Shown: positions 1-10,930 of the stretch, one piece after another | Layout of the letters: each line of letters begins with the position of its first letter | Position numbering within the stretch: position 1 is the first letter of the stretch | From: a virus | Taxonomy: Duplodnaviria > Heunggongvirae > Uroviricota > Caudoviricetes | Reading direction: 5' to 3' (one strand) | Virus record (IMG/VR): IMGVR_UViG_646862326_000012 | Span: 1-43,504 of that record | Length of the DNA: 43,504 nucleotides | The notes under the pieces: generated by a model | What the model saw: only the letters and a program-made list of their open reading frames with translations | The model's database searches: none | What the model was told of the DNA's origin: nothing | Position numbers and translations under genes: made by a program

Positions 1-1224
1 ATGGCGCTGTCTGATGCGTGGTTGCGTTCAGTCGTTGGAAAGGAACGTGATAAGGTTTTGGTTAAATCCGATCGTGATGGTCTGTCTGTCAGAGTATCAC
101 CGAAAGGTCGCGTAGTGTTCCAATATCGTTATCAATGGGCAGGGAAAGGTGAGCGCCTTGATATCGGAACTTACCCGGCAACTGGATTAAAAGAGGCCAG
201 AGAAGAGGTTATCCGTCTCCGTGGTGAACTCGAGTCAAACCGCAATCCACGATTAGTCAAGCAGGCTGAAAAACGAAAAGCTACTGAAGCCATGACGGTA
301 GAGTCTGTGATCCGTGCCTGGTATGAAGCATATTGTGTAAAAAATAAAAAAGGTTCTGAACAGATACTCCGCTCGTTTGAGCTGCACCTGTTCTCTAAAA
401 TCGGGAATATCCCTCACGATGCAGCTACATTGCATGATTGGTTAGAAGTCCTGGAGCCTCTTAGCACTAAGACTCCAGCAATAGCAGACCGATTGCTAAT
501 TAACGCAAAGCAGGCCCATGTCTGGGCGTATAAGAGAAAGCTCATTGAAACTCGCCCGCTGTCGGATATCACGGGTAAAGATATGGATATCCGTAAAGGT
601 CAGAAGAAACGGTTTCTGACACATGATGAAATTAAAATCCTTTATGCTGCGATCGATGGTTCTCGAATGGTTCCTAAATACCGGGCCTTCATTAAACTAT
701 TGCTGCATTTTGGCTGCCGTAGTTCAGAGCTAATTACCGCCAGGGTGGACGATTTTGATTTCATTAATAAAGTATGGACTGTACCACCAGAACGACATAA
801 GACTGGGGAGATAACAGGCGAACCGCTAAAGCGGCCCATTATTGAACCGGTTGAAGAGCTTATAAAGTACGCTATTTCTATGAACAATGGTTCCGATATG
901 CTTTTTACTAAGGAAGGAAGCAGGGAACCCGTTGGTCGGACATCATTGCAGTCGCTGCCTTACAATTTAATGCAGTACGCATGGCGGCGTTTGGGGTATC
1001 AATTCCCTCATTGGTCTCTTCATGATTTGAGGCGAACAGCACGAACAAACTTTTCTGATCTTACTGCGCCTCATATTGCAGAAATAATGCTAGGTCATAA
1101 ACTGCCAGGGGTATGGCAAGTTTATGACAAGAGCGATTATCTAGAAGAACAGCGTAAAGCCTACCAGGCATGGTGGGAGAGAGTTGAATCGATTGTTACT
1201 TGTTCTGGTTCAGACACCAACTGA
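1..1224 (+). CDS. int: Tyrosine site-specific integrase (P4-type)
   Basis: 407-aa ORF. N-terminus resembles P4-family integrases; C-terminal region has the catalytic-type residues (HDLRRT, final tyrosine region). Position at the prophage left end. ORF starts at window base 1, so attL is outside the window. Confidence 0.9.
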   Translation: MALSDAWLRSVVGKERDKVLVKSDRDGLSVRVSPKGRVVFQYRYQWAGKGERLDIGTYPATGLKEAREEVIRLRGELESNRNPRLVKQAEKRKATEAMTVESVIRAWYEAYCVKNKKGSEQILRSFELHLFSKIGNIPHDAATLHDWLEVLEPLSTKTPAIADRLLINAKQAHVWAYKRKLIETRPLSDITGKDMDIRKGQKKRFLTHDEIKILYAAIDGSRMVPKYRAFIKLLLHFGCRSSELITARVDDFDFINKVWTVPPERHKTGEITGEPLKRPIIEPVEELIKYAISMNNGSDMLFTKEGSREPVGRTSLQSLPYNLMQYAWRRLGYQFPHWSLHDLRRTARTNFSDLTAPHIAEIMLGHKLPGVWQVYDKSDYLEEQRKAYQAWWERVESIVTCSGSDTN

Positions 1225-1396
1225 CAGTTTGCATATTTTGAACGCAATAAAATATGACAGTCCGCTTTGAGCGAGGAGCTGATATATGATGTTTAGAAAA
1301 CGCGCGATTTGCAGTTAAGCAATCTAAGTTACTGATGTACTATACTGGAACTGCTGGCCAGTTTGTGTTGAACACCATCATTATCACAATAAGGAA

Positions 1397-2650
1397 ATGA
1401 AAGTCGAAATGAATACTAAACTTTTGGCCTATTTAAACAATGAGTTACATGGAGTGTGGATAGATAGTGAAAATCGTAATATCCACATAATACTTAAATC
1501 AAGCCTTCCTATAATTAAATCCGTCTGGTCAGGAGCACCTATCCACTTTTTGGTAGGTTTATCTACTAAAAATATACTAGTGATTGGGATGTTGATTGAA
1601 GATAATGTCGATAATCCATTTTTACTAGCCTATCCACCAAGAGAGGCAGATGAAATTAAAGGGCTGGATTTGTTATTGTCAGGCGCTTATGATGGTATTC
1701 TATTATCATTTTTTGACTCGCATACAATGCGTGTTATGGACCTGAAAATAAAAGTTTCGGAAAATTTACCGTGTGAATGTTTAAAAAAATTTTGTGCTAA
1801 TTCATATTCTCTCAATTCAGGATTTAGGGAAGGTAATGAAGCAATGGATGAATTCTGCAACAATGCTTTGACTGGTAACGAGAAAATAATTAGTCTGCCA
1901 CTAAGTGTAATCGATAAAAAATCTTACCTAGCAAGTGTTCATGAACCAAACGATACCGTATTAACATATGAATTTAGCGTCAGTGAAAACGGCTCTGAGG
2001 GATATGAGCAGGAAGCTCTTATATACCATGCTTTGCGGCAGGTCTTTTCACCGGAGGAAGTGTTTTTTTCTCCAGATATTATTGAGGGTAATAAAAAAAG
2101 AGAATTAGTTGATATTCTTATTGTAGAAAATGACTATGTATTATCTATACAGTCTAAAGCATCATCTTTGATTGAAATGGGTTTAAAATCTCATGAAAAG
2201 CTTTGTAGCATGTATAAGAAAAAAGCATTGCAAGGGATCGATCAGGTTAAAGGCGTTATCCCAATTCTAAATAATGATGTGGTTATTAATTATGACGGGA
2301 GGGAATGCTTAATAAAGCGCAGAAAGGGTATTTATCATTTAGTGATAATCTCAGATCTTGTTTTAGAGAAAGAAGGTGCTGAAAAGATTTATAACGAAAT
2401 TAGCAACCTTAAAGAGTCAAAAGGGGCGAAAGTTTTAGTTATGAGCCTTGAAGGTCTTGTAAATTTTATAAGACTATCAAGATTAAATAAAAGAATGTTT
2501 TGGGCAATGCTGGAGACTAAATACAAGTTCAGCATAAAAAACCGTACAATTTTAATTAGAGATATCGACTCTAGCCAAGAGAATAATCTACCATTACTTG
2601 CCACTGATCAATACCTATCACTTCTTCGAGGTGCGGGAAAAGTAAAATAA
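1397..2650 (+). CDS. Hypothetical AT-rich cargo protein (417 aa), possible nuclease-like core
   Basis: Long ORF in a markedly AT-rich island between int and xis. AAGGAA ribosome-binding site 7 nt upstream of the ATG. Residues 239-254 (VDILIVENDYVLSIQSK, nt 2111-2158) resemble a degenerate PD-(D/E)xK-type motif. No family recognised. Confidence 0.6.
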   Translation: MKVEMNTKLLAYLNNELHGVWIDSENRNIHIILKSSLPIIKSVWSGAPIHFLVGLSTKNILVIGMLIEDNVDNPFLLAYPPREADEIKGLDLLLSGAYDGILLSFFDSHTMRVMDLKIKVSENLPCECLKKFCANSYSLNSGFREGNEAMDEFCNNALTGNEKIISLPLSVIDKKSYLASVHEPNDTVLTYEFSVSENGSEGYEQEALIYHALRQVFSPEEVFFSPDIIEGNKKRELVDILIVENDYVLSIQSKASSLIEMGLKSHEKLCSMYKKKALQGIDQVKGVIPILNNDVVINYDGRECLIKRRKGIYHLVIISDLVLEKEGAEKIYNEISNLKESKGAKVLVMSLEGLVNFIRLSRLNKRMFWAMLETKYKFSIKNRTILIRDIDSSQENNLPLLATDQYLSLLRGAGKVK

Positions 2651-2862
2651 ATTGTATCAATGATACTGTTGCCACGTATCGAGACTGGCTTATGAACGGA
2701 AGGGTTTTCCAGCAGTTCAGCGACCGGAGCTGCACATCGATGCCGGATTGTGCCTGCAATTATGTACTTGGCTAAGAGGTGCTGCTGGCTCTGGATAGAA
2801 TAACCCTAACGTCCAAAGAGCGCGCATTTTCATGTAAAAAAATAAATAGCTTGTCTGCTCTT

Positions 2863-2886
2863 GATACAGAGCAGACAGTCAGATCT
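2863..2886 (-). terminator. Hairpin terminator at the end of the leftward early operon
   Basis: Inverted repeat gtctgctct/agagcagac with a T-run on the minus strand, downstream of xis. Confidence 0.45.
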
Positions 2887-2935
2887 GTTTGGCTTGTGCC
2901 ATAGATGTGCCAGCTCACATTTGAGCTAATGTTTG

Positions 2936-3130
2936 TTACTCAATTACTCCTGCAAACCTGTATATCTTACGTGATGCCCATTTATTTGGGCAGGATTTAA
3001 TATCAGGATCTGGAAAATCAGGCCGATATTTCTGACCAGTCCTCCGGTTTACACTGTTCCAGCGAAGCACCGTCGATATTGAAACGCCACAGAATTCGGC
3101 GACTTGTTTTGTTGTCATTAAGTTGTTCAT
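2936..3130 (-). CDS. xis: Excisionase / AlpA-like DNA-binding protein
   Basis: Internal start MNNLMTTKQVAEFCGVSISTVLRW (helix-turn-helix typical of phage excisionase/AlpA) preceded by GGAGGG. ATGA overlap with the upstream gene. The longer 92-aa ORF in the track is probably an over-extension. Confidence 0.7.
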   Translation of the reverse strand: MNNLMTTKQVAEFCGVSISTVLRWNSVNRRTGQKYRPDFPDPDIKSCPNKWASRKIYRFAGVIE

Positions 3131-3474
3131 TGTTGACCCTCCTGTGGTTGTGCAGTTGAAAGACTCATGCCCGCGCGTTGTTGCCAGACGACCCAGCCGA
3201 GAGCCATATCCCACGCCATGTACTCGTTATCACCGTTTTTTGCTCTCCGACGATCGACTGTTTTACCGAAACGCTTTTCCATAAATAATTCATAGGCTGC
3301 GCGTTCATCTGGCTCAACTTCCAGAGATGCCAGTGCAATCCGTGCCAGTTCTAAATCATCTTCAAGCTCAGCGCGAATCTCAGCGAATGCACTCTGTGTT
3401 AAGGCGAACTCAATGCTCTGCACTTTATTCCGTGCGCGCTCAAGCAGTGCATGGTAGTTAATTTCGGTTGTCAT
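3127..3474 (-). CDS. Hypothetical early-left protein (115 aa)
   Basis: ORF with AGAGG ribosome-binding site; translationally coupled within the leftward operon. No recognisable motif. Confidence 0.55.
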   Translation of the reverse strand: MTTEINYHALLERARNKVQSIEFALTQSAFAEIRAELEDDLELARIALASLEVEPDERAAYELFMEKRFGKTVDRRRAKNGDNEYMAWDMALGWVVWQQRAGMSLSTAQPQEGQQ

Positions 3475-4349
3475 ACCCCTACCTCTTCGAATTTCAATTC
3501 TAATTGATCACCCCAGATTTCACATGACTCTGAACACGAGCCGGTATCGAATCGCCTGGCCTGTACCATCGCCTGATACAAATTTCTGTAGTCGCTGTTG
3601 GCAGACATTCTGGCAATTCCGTCAAGCGTCAGGTGACCACGGTACATAACGTCTTTACCTGTTCTGCGATGACCATCCCTGACGTGTTTGCCTGTAACCA
3701 GCTCATTAAAAACTCGCATCAGACCAGGTTCGTCTTTACATGCAAGCCCCAGCTTTTGCGTTGACTTTTTGATGCAGAAAACACAGTTCCCGAGATGCTC
3801 CGGGATTTGCAAATCAAAAGGTTGTTTTCGCCACCACCGGATAACATCCGACTTATCAAAATCTGACAGTTCGGCAAGATACCGGACGCCCGATTTCGGT
3901 TTCAGCCTACGGGGTTCGTCTGCACGAATACCCAGCCATGTGATGTAATTACCTCGCCCGAAATGGTTATCGCAGTATTTCGTGAAAGGGATGAGTTTTA
4001 GCCTGTCAGTACAGAACGCGCCGCCGATGTATGGCGTGCCGTACTTTTTAACCATGTCCATAAACGGTTTAAGTACCGGCATTCGCGTCTGAATATCCTT
4101 TGGCTCCCATTCTGTATAACCATTTGGCTGCCCAAGCTCAGGATTGATATCGACCTGCAACACAGTTAGTGGTATGCCCCAGAACTTCACAACCTCCCGA
4201 ATAAAGCGGTATGTCAGCGGATGTTCGCAACCGGTATCCATAAAGATGTAGCAGACGTTATTGCCAGCCTTTCTTTGTTCTTCCATCAGGTGAACAAGAT
4301 ATGCAGATGTTCTCCCGCCGGAAAAACTAACTACATGAGTTATGCACAT
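3471..4349 (-). CDS. PAPS reductase-family PP-loop ATP pyrophosphatase-like protein
   Basis: 292 aa. N-terminal SFSGGRTS matches the PP-loop (SGGxxS) of the PAPS reductase / sulfate adenylyltransferase superfamily. GGAG ribosome-binding site; overlaps the stop of the upstream gene. Confidence 0.75.
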   Translation of the reverse strand: MCITHVVSFSGGRTSAYLVHLMEEQRKAGNNVCYIFMDTGCEHPLTYRFIREVVKFWGIPLTVLQVDINPELGQPNGYTEWEPKDIQTRMPVLKPFMDMVKKYGTPYIGGAFCTDRLKLIPFTKYCDNHFGRGNYITWLGIRADEPRRLKPKSGVRYLAELSDFDKSDVIRWWRKQPFDLQIPEHLGNCVFCIKKSTQKLGLACKDEPGLMRVFNELVTGKHVRDGHRRTGKDVMYRGHLTLDGIARMSANSDYRNLYQAMVQARRFDTGSCSESCEIWGDQLELKFEEVGV

Positions 4350-8562: not shown

Positions 8563-9395
8563 ACAGTTTAACGGCAAATAACCGTTTGTCGCAACAGCTG
8601 GTGGTCAGCGTCGCTGAACACCTGTTGTTACGGCATGAATGCAGATTACCAAATCACATGGCTGTAAGTAACCACAGAGAACTTTACCTGACTGTGGGGG
8701 GCGAGTTGTGCAGGAACTTAACCGCTGGTTTCGTGACGGAAGAGGGCTTTATGTCCATGTTATTCGTTGGGAGCCAGAAACACAGCGCGTTATCTATCTT
8801 CGCAAAGACTACCCGCATGAGTGCTTTAGTCCTTTGTGGAAATTCAGGCGTGATTTTGTTGAGTGTGAAGGACCACCAGCACATTGATTCTGCCATTCCG
8901 GGACGTTACACTGTTCAGGCACCTTATAAAGCGGGTGTCGGGATTGGCGTCCTGGAATTGCATACGGCGACAATTGGCGCGTTAGCGTCTTTTTTGTTGC
9001 TACAACTCAGCTATACCCAAATTATGGTGGGCTGGGTGGGGGCACCGAAAGGTGCGCCGGTTTCCGTATGCGCCGGTTACGCCAACCCTGCTCAGTTCAC
9101 CACCAGCGAAATTGGCGTTTCCGGTGGTGGAAGTTATCCATTGCATACGGAGGCTGCCATCATGGCTACTGTCCCAGCCCTCTCTCGTCTGAATGATGAA
9201 GACTTACATAAACTCAGTTATGTAACAACTGCACTACATGCTCTGCGCAAGGTAACTCTTTCGGATCCGCAGGCGCATCAGGTTTTGGTAGAAACCCTTC
9301 TTAACTTGCAGGCTGAACGTATTCGTCTGGCGGATAAGGCTAATTTTCATATTCACCGTCTCCTGAATATCAGCGGAGGGCATCGTCATGCTTAA
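8559..9395 (+). CDS. Hypothetical protein (278 aa)
   Basis: ORF translationally coupled to both neighbours (ATGA overlap upstream; the next gene's ribosome-binding site lies in its 3' end). No motif recognised; composition is unusual. Confidence 0.4.
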   Translation: MNSLTANNRLSQQLVVSVAEHLLLRHECRLPNHMAVSNHRELYLTVGGELCRNLTAGFVTEEGFMSMLFVGSQKHSALSIFAKTTRMSALVLCGNSGVILLSVKDHQHIDSAIPGRYTVQAPYKAGVGIGVLELHTATIGALASFLLLQLSYTQIMVGWVGAPKGAPVSVCAGYANPAQFTTSEIGVSGGGSYPLHTEAAIMATVPALSRLNDEDLHKLSYVTTALHALRKVTLSDPQAHQVLVETLLNLQAERIRLADKANFHIHRLLNISGGHRHA

Positions 9396-9624
9396 TCCGT
9401 TGATCCTCAATATTTGCCGTTTGCTTCAGCGTAAAAAAACATCAATTCCTACAGTTGGGCAGTGGTACACCACGCCTGCAGGGCATGTTCTACGTGTTAG
9501 CCTGGTTGACCGTGAATGCCAGAAGGTGATTTGTGAACCGCTGGGCCGTAATTACCGCGTCAGTATGCCGCTTATAGCCTTTCGCTCCGGAAAAAACATG
9601 AAGCATCTCGGAGGTGCAGCATGA
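9388..9624 (+). CDS. Hypothetical small protein (78 aa)
   Basis: GGAGGG ribosome-binding site 8 nt upstream; ATGA overlap with the downstream replication gene. Confidence 0.45.
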   Translation: MLNPLILNICRLLQRKKTSIPTVGQWYTTPAGHVLRVSLVDRECQKVICEPLGRNYRVSMPLIAFRSGKNMKHLGGAA

Positions 9625-10439
9625 GTATGGAGCTGATGGTTAAAGCGATGAAAATTCGAGTGGGTAATCCATTGCGAAAACTGGTTCTGATCAAGCTGGC
9701 TGATAATGCCAGCGATCAGGGTGAGTGCTGGCCCAGCTACCAGCATATTGCTGACCAGTGCGAGATTAGCAAACGTTCTGTGATGAATCATATTGCGGCC
9801 CTTTGTGAGTCCGGGCTGGTAAAAAAAGTCACCCGGAAAGGTGAAAAAGGTAACTCAAGTAATATCTATCTCCTTCATCTGGATGGTGCAGGAGATTCAC
9901 TAGGGGGTAGTGCAAATAATTCACTATCTGGTGCAGCAAATTCACTAGGTAGTGCAGGAGTTGCACCAGGGGGTAGTGCAGGAGATTCACCCAGAACCAG
10001 TCACTCTTTTGAACCAGTCAAAGAACCAGTCAATGAACCAATAGCTGTTGGTGCATCAGTTGATGAGCCCGTGCGAGTTCGTTCAAACCGACCGGAATAC
10101 TCTCCGGAGTTTGAGCAGGCATGGCTGGCATATCCCAAACGTGCTGGTGGCAATTCAAAATCTGCAGCCTTCAAAGCCTGGAAAGCCCGTTTGAATGAGG
10201 GAGTAAACCCCGAAACCATGCTGGAAGGTGTGAAACGCTACGCGGGCTGGGTATCTGCGATGGGTAACAGCGGCACACAATTTGTGAAACAGGCTGTCAC
10301 GTTCTTTGGTCCGGATCGTCATTTCGAAGAATTCTGGGAAGTTCCTGCGGTATCTGCAGCCAGACGCGAGGACCCGTACTTCAAAGCCAGTTACGACAAC
10401 GTGGACTACAGCCAGATCCCGGCAGGATTCAGGGGGTGA
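9621..10439 (+). CDS. Replication initiation protein (O-like, N-terminal HTH)
   Basis: 272 aa. N-terminal winged-helix/HTH region (LVLIKLADNASDQGECWPSYQHIADQ...) typical of phage replication-initiator N-domains. Central low-complexity linker encoded by iteron-like DNA repeats. Confidence 0.6.
   Translation: MSMELMVKAMKIRVGNPLRKLVLIKLADNASDQGECWPSYQHIADQCEISKRSVMNHIAALCESGLVKKVTRKGEKGNSSNIYLLHLDGAGDSLGGSANNSLSGAANSLGSAGVAPGGSAGDSPRTSHSFEPVKEPVNEPIAVGASVDEPVRVRSNRPEYSPEFEQAWLAYPKRAGGNSKSAAFKAWKARLNEGVNPETMLEGVKRYAGWVSAMGNSGTQFVKQAVTFFGPDRHFEEFWEVPAVSAARREDPYFKASYDNVDYSQIPAGFRG
9885..10045. repeat. Iteron-like direct repeats inside the O-like gene (candidate ori)
   Basis: About 4 copies of a ~24-bp unit (ATTCACTAGGGGGTAGTGCA-like), followed by 3-4 copies of GAACCAGTCA. 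Arrangement is analogous to lambda ori iterons embedded in gene O. Confidence 0.5.
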
Positions 10440-10441
10440 TC

Positions 10442-10930
10442 ATGAGTCTTTTGAATGAAGTTCAGAAATTCATTGAAGCCCATCCGGGGTGTACTTCCGG
10501 AGACATTGCGGATGCTTTTGCAGGTTACTCACGGCAGCGCGTTCTGCAGTCAGCAAGCAAGTTACGTCAGAGTGGGCGTGTGGCTCACCGTTGTGAAGGA
10601 GATACACGCAGACATTTCCCACGCCTGACTGAGAGAGCGCAGGAGCCGGAACCACAACCAGTTCGTGAAACCAGACCTGTGCGCAATTTCTATGTCGGCA
10701 CTAACGATCCCCGGGTGATTTTGTGCCTGACCCGCCAGGCGGAAGAACTGGAGTCCAGGGGCTTATACCGTCGTGCTGCAACGGTGTGGATGGCGGCATT
10801 CCGTGAAAGCCACTCCCAGCCAGAACGAAACAATTTTCTGGCGCGTCGTGAGCAGTGTTTACGGAAAAGCAGCAAGCGCGCTGTATCGGGTGATGAGTGG
10901 TATCTGTCAGGGAATTACGTGGGGGCTTAA
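10442..10930 (+). CDS. Hypothetical regulator, possibly PerC-family-like C-terminus
   Basis: Start at ATG 10442 with AGGGGG ribosome-binding site. N-terminal winged-helix-like segment; C-terminal LESRGLYRRAATVWMAAF resembles the PerC/Pch family motif as remembered. Weak. Confidence 0.4.
   Translation: MSLLNEVQKFIEAHPGCTSGDIADAFAGYSRQRVLQSASKLRQSGRVAHRCEGDTRRHFPRLTERAQEPEPQPVRETRPVRNFYVGTNDPRVILCLTRQAEELESRGLYRRAATVWMAAFRESHSQPERNNFLARREQCLRKSSKRAVSGDEWYLSGNYVGA

Follow-up and report, generated by a model that had tools for sequence, protein, structure and literature searches.

We analysed a stretch of DNA of 43,504 nucleotides (nt) from a virus of the Caudoviricetes (positions 1 to 43,504 of the IMG/VR record IMGVR_UViG_646862326_000012, hereafter the window), with a focus on the gene between the integrase gene int and the leftward operon that ends in the excisionase gene xis. 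This gene, here called the cargo gene, is the only long open reading frame (ORF) in the int-xis interval (1397..2650, plus strand, 417 codons), and at a probability of roughly 60% we read it as an anti-phage nuclease that acts on its own and belongs to an undescribed family, for which about 225 representative clusters were found. The int-xis interval, or slot, contains or is bordered by the following features, with protein lengths in amino acids (aa):

1..1224, plus strand: tyrosine integrase gene, 407 aa (ORF list and RefSeq annotation of identical loci), left flank of the slot
1260..1279, no strand: left junction motif GTCCGCTTTGAGCGAGGAGC, from the comparison of junctions, partly an inverted repeat in other copies
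about 1260..2863, no strand: mobile AT-rich cassette of 1.6 kb with 36% GC, made up of a leader of about 140 nt, the ORF and a trailer of about 210 nt
1397..2650, plus strand: cargo gene, 417-aa ORF with the probable start ATG at 1409, matching phrog_30399 over the full length
2651..2851, no strand: non-coding trailer of the cassette, conserved together with the ORF in other backbones
2838..2877, minus strand: intrinsic terminator of the leftward xis operon, with a 10-bp stem and a T-run (terminator scan), right border of the slot
2936..3130, minus strand: excisionase gene xis, 64 aa, from the ATG at 3130, last gene of the leftward operon and right flank of the slot

A preliminary description of the locus, made from the sequence alone, had reported an AT-rich ORF of 417 aa between int and xis with an upstream region of its own, and both observations were borne out. 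The GC content of the ORF is 33.9%, compared to 50.2% in the rest of the window, and upstream of the gene there is a non-coding leader of 172-184 nt. The chance of finding 417 stop-free codons at the local base composition is about 4e-15. The true start is probably the second ATG, at 1409, since M5 is invariant, most of the homologues begin there and RefSeq calls a protein of 413 aa. This 413-aa protein is identical to WP_014639524.1 / ADE92061.1. In comparison with the copies that are about 92% identical, the ratio of nonsynonymous to synonymous substitution rates (dN/dS) was about 0.25 in both halves of the gene, which means purifying selection, and the ORF is a functional gene under selection. 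Both int and the cargo gene read rightward, convergent with the xis operon. Sister phages match the xis region at 84-86% nt identity, and the matches include the annotated excisionase of phage 2H10. In E. coli genomes the prophage adjoins yjjG/prfC. The 64-aa xis ORF (2936-3130) was left unannotated by RefSeq in the E. coli genomes that were examined.

Nuclease fold and family of the cargo protein

An AlphaFold model built from an alignment of 124 sequences reached a pLDDT of 92.2 and a pTM of 0.91, and replaced an earlier model from 14 close sequences with a pLDDT of 67. Based on this model and on the conservation among the relatives, the cargo gene was divided as follows:

1397..1981, plus strand: N-terminal domain, residues 1-195, beta-hairpin-rich in the model, presumed specificity or sensor module
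1982..2566, plus strand: C-terminal PD-(D/E)xK nuclease domain of FokI/NERD type, residues about 196-390, from the structure model and conservation
2012..2245, plus strand: catalytic core with E206 (2012-2014), D239 (2111-2113), Q252-S-K254 (2150-2158) and Q283 (2243-2245)
2567..2581, plus strand: DSS(Q/L)(E/P) motif conserved in the C-terminal tail; in the closer relatives S392 and S393 do not vary and D391 hardly does

The model shows the PD-(D/E)xK core of a helix, three strands, a helix and a strand, in which an acidic residue starts strand 2 and the (D/E)xK position lies on strand 3. E206 is located in the helix 201-214, D239 opens the strand 240-244, and Q252-x-K254 lies in the strand 247-254. 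In the alignment E206, D239, K254 and Q283 were the only residues invariant in all 124 relatives, some of which are only about 17% identical. The preliminary description had seen a degenerate PD-(D/E)xK core in the segment from D239 to K254 (nt 2111-2158; VDILIVENDYVLSIQSK covers residues 238-254, nt 2108-2158), and this core is supported by the structure, by its invariance throughout the family and by the NERD matches of the relatives. The structure-based search that it had proposed likewise led, with Foldseek and the model, to a nuclease fold. After FokI-type domains, the structural matches of the nuclease domain were Can2, Card1, NucC, SduA, HamA and type II enzymes, and Foldseek concurred; the viral structure library BFVD gave weak matches to the nuclease domain. 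Model confidence was lower over the DSS(Q/L)(E/P) motif of the C-terminal tail.

The residue at position 252 is E in 101 of the relatives, Q in 21 and S in two. The family consensus of the D239-K254 motif is RELTD...LIESK, a canonical D...ExK, and the clade of the cargo protein has Q. This Enterobacterales clade replaces three acidic residues that are conserved in the family, namely E108 by S (1718-1720), E252 by Q (2150-2152) and D350 by S (2444-2446). The combination S108/Q252/S350 could mean an altered metal site or a change in regulation. Q252 was also found in 13 other scattered distant lineages, which indicates that the E/Q exchange is tolerated in the family, and the QxK variant of the cargo protein is presumed to be catalytically competent.

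For the N-terminal 195 residues, which were modelled confidently, no structural or profile match covered them when they were searched within the model of the whole protein, including with Foldseek and in BFVD. Two of their residues, K34 and D69, are nearly invariant. The domain was also considered as a duplicate of the C-terminal domain, and this was rejected with an hhalign probability of 0.9%. The preliminary description had further read the stretch RRKGIYH (residues 308-314) as an Rx4H motif of the HEPN type, a reading that did not hold: R309 is not conserved (the family has D, S, N, K, E or T there), H314 is kept in only 8 of the 124 relatives, and in the model the nuclease domain has a beta-strand at residues 311-318, in contrast to the all-alpha bundle of HEPN proteins.

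Among the libraries searched, the sole match of the cargo protein was phrog_30399 in PHROGs, which has no assigned function. With a word-indexed search we obtained 13 clusters, and all of those with a named source organism belonged to the Enterobacterales. An exhaustive profile search gave 225 representative clusters (E ≤ 1e-3; clustered at 50% identity), mostly of full-length proteins of about 400 aa. Members occur in E. coli, Salmonella, Kluyvera, Serratia, Yersinia and Morganella, and distant ones in Rhodanobacter (Xanthomonadales) and in metagenomes of unassigned origin. One genome matched when the species-representative genomes were searched with the close alignment. Profile searches against the sequences of the PDB gave nothing significant, with chance-level matches at E > 1 from one alignment and none from the other. 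The family was not found in the literature by accession (WP_014639524, WP_015364392, WP_016240718, ADE92061) or by PHROG identifier, and prior experimental coverage is possible; nor was the cargo gene found in the DefensePredictor supplements. The family is unannotated in every library searched (Pfam, NCBIfam, PADLOC 2023), while its general kind, a single-gene nuclease cargo in a prophage hotspot, is familiar. Four relatives of about 534-542 aa (P0070, P0107, P0108 and P0155) have the same N-terminal and nuclease domains plus a C-terminal extension of about 140 aa without a Pfam match. The profile positions 42-116 were also matched, in 23 separate stretches, by P0050, a surface repeat protein of the type IX secretion system type (CHU_C) with 2283 aa. 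This match was treated as uninformative and is probably a compositional or beta-repeat artefact.

The cargo protein was compared with several known nuclease systems. The FokI-type domains (FokI, N.BspD6I and the small subunit of R.BspD6I) share no more than 11-12% sequence identity with it, and profile searches did not reveal a relation at the sequence level. The recognition domains of these enzymes are not matched by the N-terminal domain of the cargo protein, which moreover has no cognate methyltransferase and carries QxK in contrast to their DxK. Pfam NERD (PF08378) was matched by 39 of 100 distant relatives (E ≤ 0.1) over residues of about 205-300, with a best E-value of 8.8e-6. Most relatives score below the Pfam cut-off: the four individually listed matches reached 14-17 bits, compared to a gathering cut-off of 22.1 bits. 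The cargo protein itself had no NERD match at E ≤ 10. Its spacing, E206-x32-D239-x12-Q252-x-K254, is nevertheless like that of the NERD effector ZwsA, E535-x31-D567-x12-E580-x-K582, and ZwsA demonstrates that a single NERD protein can serve as a defence effector. However, ZwsA is larger (its catalytic K is residue 582), has VHS, DUF647 and S4 domains and cuts the RNA of RNA phages, whereas the cargo protein has about 400 aa and a different N-terminal domain.

Shedu (SduA, DUF4263) is more distant. The cargo protein was not matched by the Shedu models of PADLOC or by Pfam SduA_C, two of 100 relatives matched SduA_C weakly, and the structural similarity to the nuclease domain is far below that of the FokI-type domains. 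Like the cargo protein, Mrr-type (type IV) enzymes are orphan nucleases without a methyltransferase, in which an N-terminal DNA-recognition domain is followed by a C-terminal PD-(D/E)xK domain, and they carry a natural D...QxK variant of the motif that resembles the QxK found here. In contrast to these enzymes, the cargo protein has no Mrr_cat match, and its N-terminal domain was not identified as a winged helix or as a known reader of modified bases. The CARF effectors Can2 and Card1 differ by their CARF (Rossmann-like) domain, which the cargo protein lacks; its N-terminal half is beta-hairpin-rich, and its gene is associated neither with CRISPR nor with a cyclase.

A mobile cassette in a defence hotspot

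Six loci on unrelated backbones, in IMG/VR prophages and a Kluyvera chromosome, share with the window only the segment of about 1260-2863, at about 92% nt identity. In addition, a copy with a 91%-identical protein adjoins an IS110 element on a Salmonella SSU5-like phage-plasmid. The preliminary description had proposed to look for close relatives without the island, and sister phages with the same int were found to carry other cargo instead: PhiR63_1, 2H10 and Stx2c phages share the window from 1 to about 1270 and from about 2853 onward, with different AT-rich cargo between. In such phages homology is lost at 1266-1280 and regained at 2853-2866. Of 5426 complete E. coli genomes, 698 have the same integrase type and 74 of these also have the cargo gene, which is about 1.4% of the complete genomes (74/5426). 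The cargo gene was absent from 50,697 phage records. As had been suggested, it is an accessory gene, carried in a slot beside the integrase whose content varies. No conserved partner gene was found; the neighbours vary by locus, and in three loci the neighbouring proteins of about 430-450 aa are not related to each other.

Two short sequences that resemble each other flank the cassette, GTCCGCTTTGA on its left side (1260-1279) and GTCTGCTCTTGA on its right side (2853-2867); in the copies L018 and L026 the former belongs to an inverted repeat (TCCGCT...AGCGGA). This similarity could be chance or a recombination signal. No Rfam match to a small RNA or riboswitch was found in the cassette. In the copy of Kluyvera sichuanensis (L018, about 9283-10501) there is about 1.2 kb of extra DNA between the end of the ORF and the trailer, with ORFs of 94 and 270 aa.

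The hairpin at 2852-2877, 200 nt past the stop codon of the cargo gene, folds as RNA with -21.9 kcal/mol (z = -3.95). It is real, as the preliminary description had it, although it does not belong to the cargo gene: it is the terminator of the xis operon, because the T-run lies on the minus strand and sister phages without the cargo ORF retain a hairpin. In these phages the hairpin occupies the same position, with arms that differ in sequence and are self-complementary (L003 about 2727-2750, L004 about 3395-3420, L005 about 3285-3312). Complementary arm pairs at the slot border are for example TGTCTGCTCT/AGAGCAGACA, TGTCCGCTT/AAGCGGACA and CGTCCGCTCTT/AAGAGTGGACG, and this covariation suggests that the hairpin is functional. 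It may also be the recombination joint for the swapping of cargo.

In other strains the int-xis slot contained Dsr1, an AIPR family (Abi) protein, a dGTPase (PADLOC 6.4e-105) and genes without an assigned role. At least six other AT-rich unannotated genes were seen in the slot and, given their known defence slot-mates, are further defence candidates:

L002, 1627-2760
L003, 1810-2529
L004, 1696-3243
L038, 4392-5387
L040, 4126-5102
L042, 4301-5329

The homologues were likewise found among defence genes. A lambdoid prophage of Morganella has, at its end near icd, a full-length homologue of PD-T7-1 (L007 6401-7759, PADLOC 1.6e-156), with the integrase on one side and the family member on the other. 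Genes encoding DUF6602 (Damona-like, PD_DExK), a domain of the validated Damona system, are located directly downstream of family members in two loci (L006 9351-10667 and L032 9412-10176). The contexts of these two are the tail slot of a P2-like prophage and a metagenomic island. The tail region of P2 has been described as a hotspot. The adjacency may be a coincidental co-location in islands or a functional pairing. Other homologues adjoin Gabija, TIR effectors and AbiGi or are part of Tn7-like cargo, and a homologue on a Yersinia plasmid adjoins a restriction endonuclease and a phospholipase D (PLD) protein. Based on this enrichment in defence islands and mobile hotspots, with Dsr1, AIPR and dGTPase as slot-mates and PD-T7-1, DUF6602, Gabija and TIR effectors next to homologues, the defence or exclusion role proposed in the preliminary description is the best-supported reading of the gene.

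A second variable block is located just past xis (3170-4342) and encodes a protein of 115 aa, which the annotation of one genome calls DNA-binding, as well as a PAPS-reductase-family protein of 292 aa. It has no nt homology to the sister phages, which have other genes there, and the homology resumes at yfdR (4342).

Possible roles of the cargo gene

As an anti-phage nuclease the cargo gene would be a prophage moron that shields the lysogen from other phages with a single protein. Its N-terminal domain would give the specificity, by recognising a feature of the invading nucleic acid or a phage-made cue, and its C-terminal FokI/NERD-type domain would cut the target with an active site formed by E206, D239, Q252-x-K254 and Q283. 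By analogy with FokI-type domains the nuclease probably acts as a dimer. As the cassette moves alone, without a methyltransferase or an immunity gene, the host would have to be spared by target specificity, for example for modified or structured nucleic acid, or by trigger-dependent activation. We infer a nuclease activity, a trigger and a protective phenotype, with DNA as a likelier substrate than RNA. It is possible, though we would put the odds against it, that the gene represents the Enterobacterales branch of an undescribed and widespread single-protein immune family, in which an N-terminal domain of a new fold senses a phage-specific cue and licenses the FokI-type nuclease, so that the host is safe without a linked methyltransferase.

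Several observations speak against a defence nuclease. The cargo protein had zero matches in Pfam, NCBIfam and PADLOC (2023), that is, no defence model and no Pfam family. The scan of the leader of 172-184 nt gave no sigma-70 consensus promoter, and the gene may depend on a promoter that deviates from the consensus or on transcripts that extend from int. The replacements S108/Q252/S350 could have weakened or altered catalysis. Furthermore, guilt by association also fits the role of a toxin or of a selfish nuclease. A type II/IIS restriction-modification system was rejected: no methyltransferase was linked to the cargo gene, the cassette (1260-2863) holds only the cargo ORF and the neighbours differ in every context.

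The lack of a linked modification enzyme would also be expected of a toxin, an abortive-infection killer or an addiction module, in which the nuclease hits host nucleic acid upon activation or upon loss of the prophage and in this way stabilises the element. Homologues indeed adjoin Fic/Phd and zeta-toxin genes, and many effectors that combine a sensor with a PD-(D/E)xK domain (Can2, Card1, NucC) cleave indiscriminately. However, the cassette contains no conserved ORF of antitoxin size or RNA, and a conserved neighbour is absent as well, and we consider this role unlikely; if phage infection activates the nuclease, it merges with the defence reading as an abortive-infection version of it. The missing methyltransferase partner would equally suit a selfish cassette of the homing type, for which the N-terminal domain reads a site, the FokI-like domain cuts alleles without the cassette and repair copies the cassette in, with a spread that is self-driven and does not come from a benefit to the host. 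The architecture, a recognition domain joined to a non-specific cleavage domain, resembles a type IIS enzyme, the borders are sharp with about 92% identity across unrelated backbones, and both junctions have short conserved or hairpin-forming motifs. Homing needs one conserved target, whereas the insertion sites are not homologous (the int-xis slot, the P2 tail slot, a site past int in another prophage, sites beside IS110, other insertion sequence (IS) and Tn3 elements, and chromosomal islets). Distant members are located in classical defence islands, and many unrelated cargo genes swap in the same slot, so that ordinary recombination at conserved flanks explains the mobility. Homing is in our opinion improbable.

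We give similarly little weight to a catalytically dead or re-purposed fold, a consequence that might be drawn from Q252, S350 and S108 and that would make the protein a binder of nucleic acid only, as a regulator, a decoy or an anti-defence factor for the phage. In its favour, the replacement of the three acidic residues that the family conserves is specific to the Enterobacterales clade, and the cargo protein lacks the NERD match of 39 distant relatives. On the other hand, E206, D239, K254 and Q283 are all kept under purifying selection, Q252 recurs in the 13 other lineages, and QxK is a natural motif of active Mrr-type enzymes. A nuclease of the phage life cycle, acting in recombination, replication or degradation of host DNA, and not an accessory immunity gene, would fit the position next to the int/xis recombination module and the common use of PD-(D/E)xK enzymes in phage recombination. 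Yet sister phages that share int, xis and the early genes do not have the cargo gene, nor does any of the 50,697 deposited phage genomes, and it is present in contexts that are not phage (Tn7-like cargo, plasmids and chromosomal islands), which makes this role highly implausible.

If the anti-phage nuclease is confirmed, it would represent a compact defence family of one gene in 1.6 kb that is not recognised by Pfam, NCBIfam and PADLOC 2023. The int-xis interval of a common group of lambdoid prophages that integrate at prfC/yjjG would then be a defence hotspot that can be mined further. The combination of the unassigned N-terminal domain with a FokI-like cleavage domain is interesting for its mechanism and might be useful as a tool. 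Should the N-terminal domain be a sensor of a new fold, the logic that couples sensor and effector would be new, and programmable, separable cleavage modules might be obtained from it.

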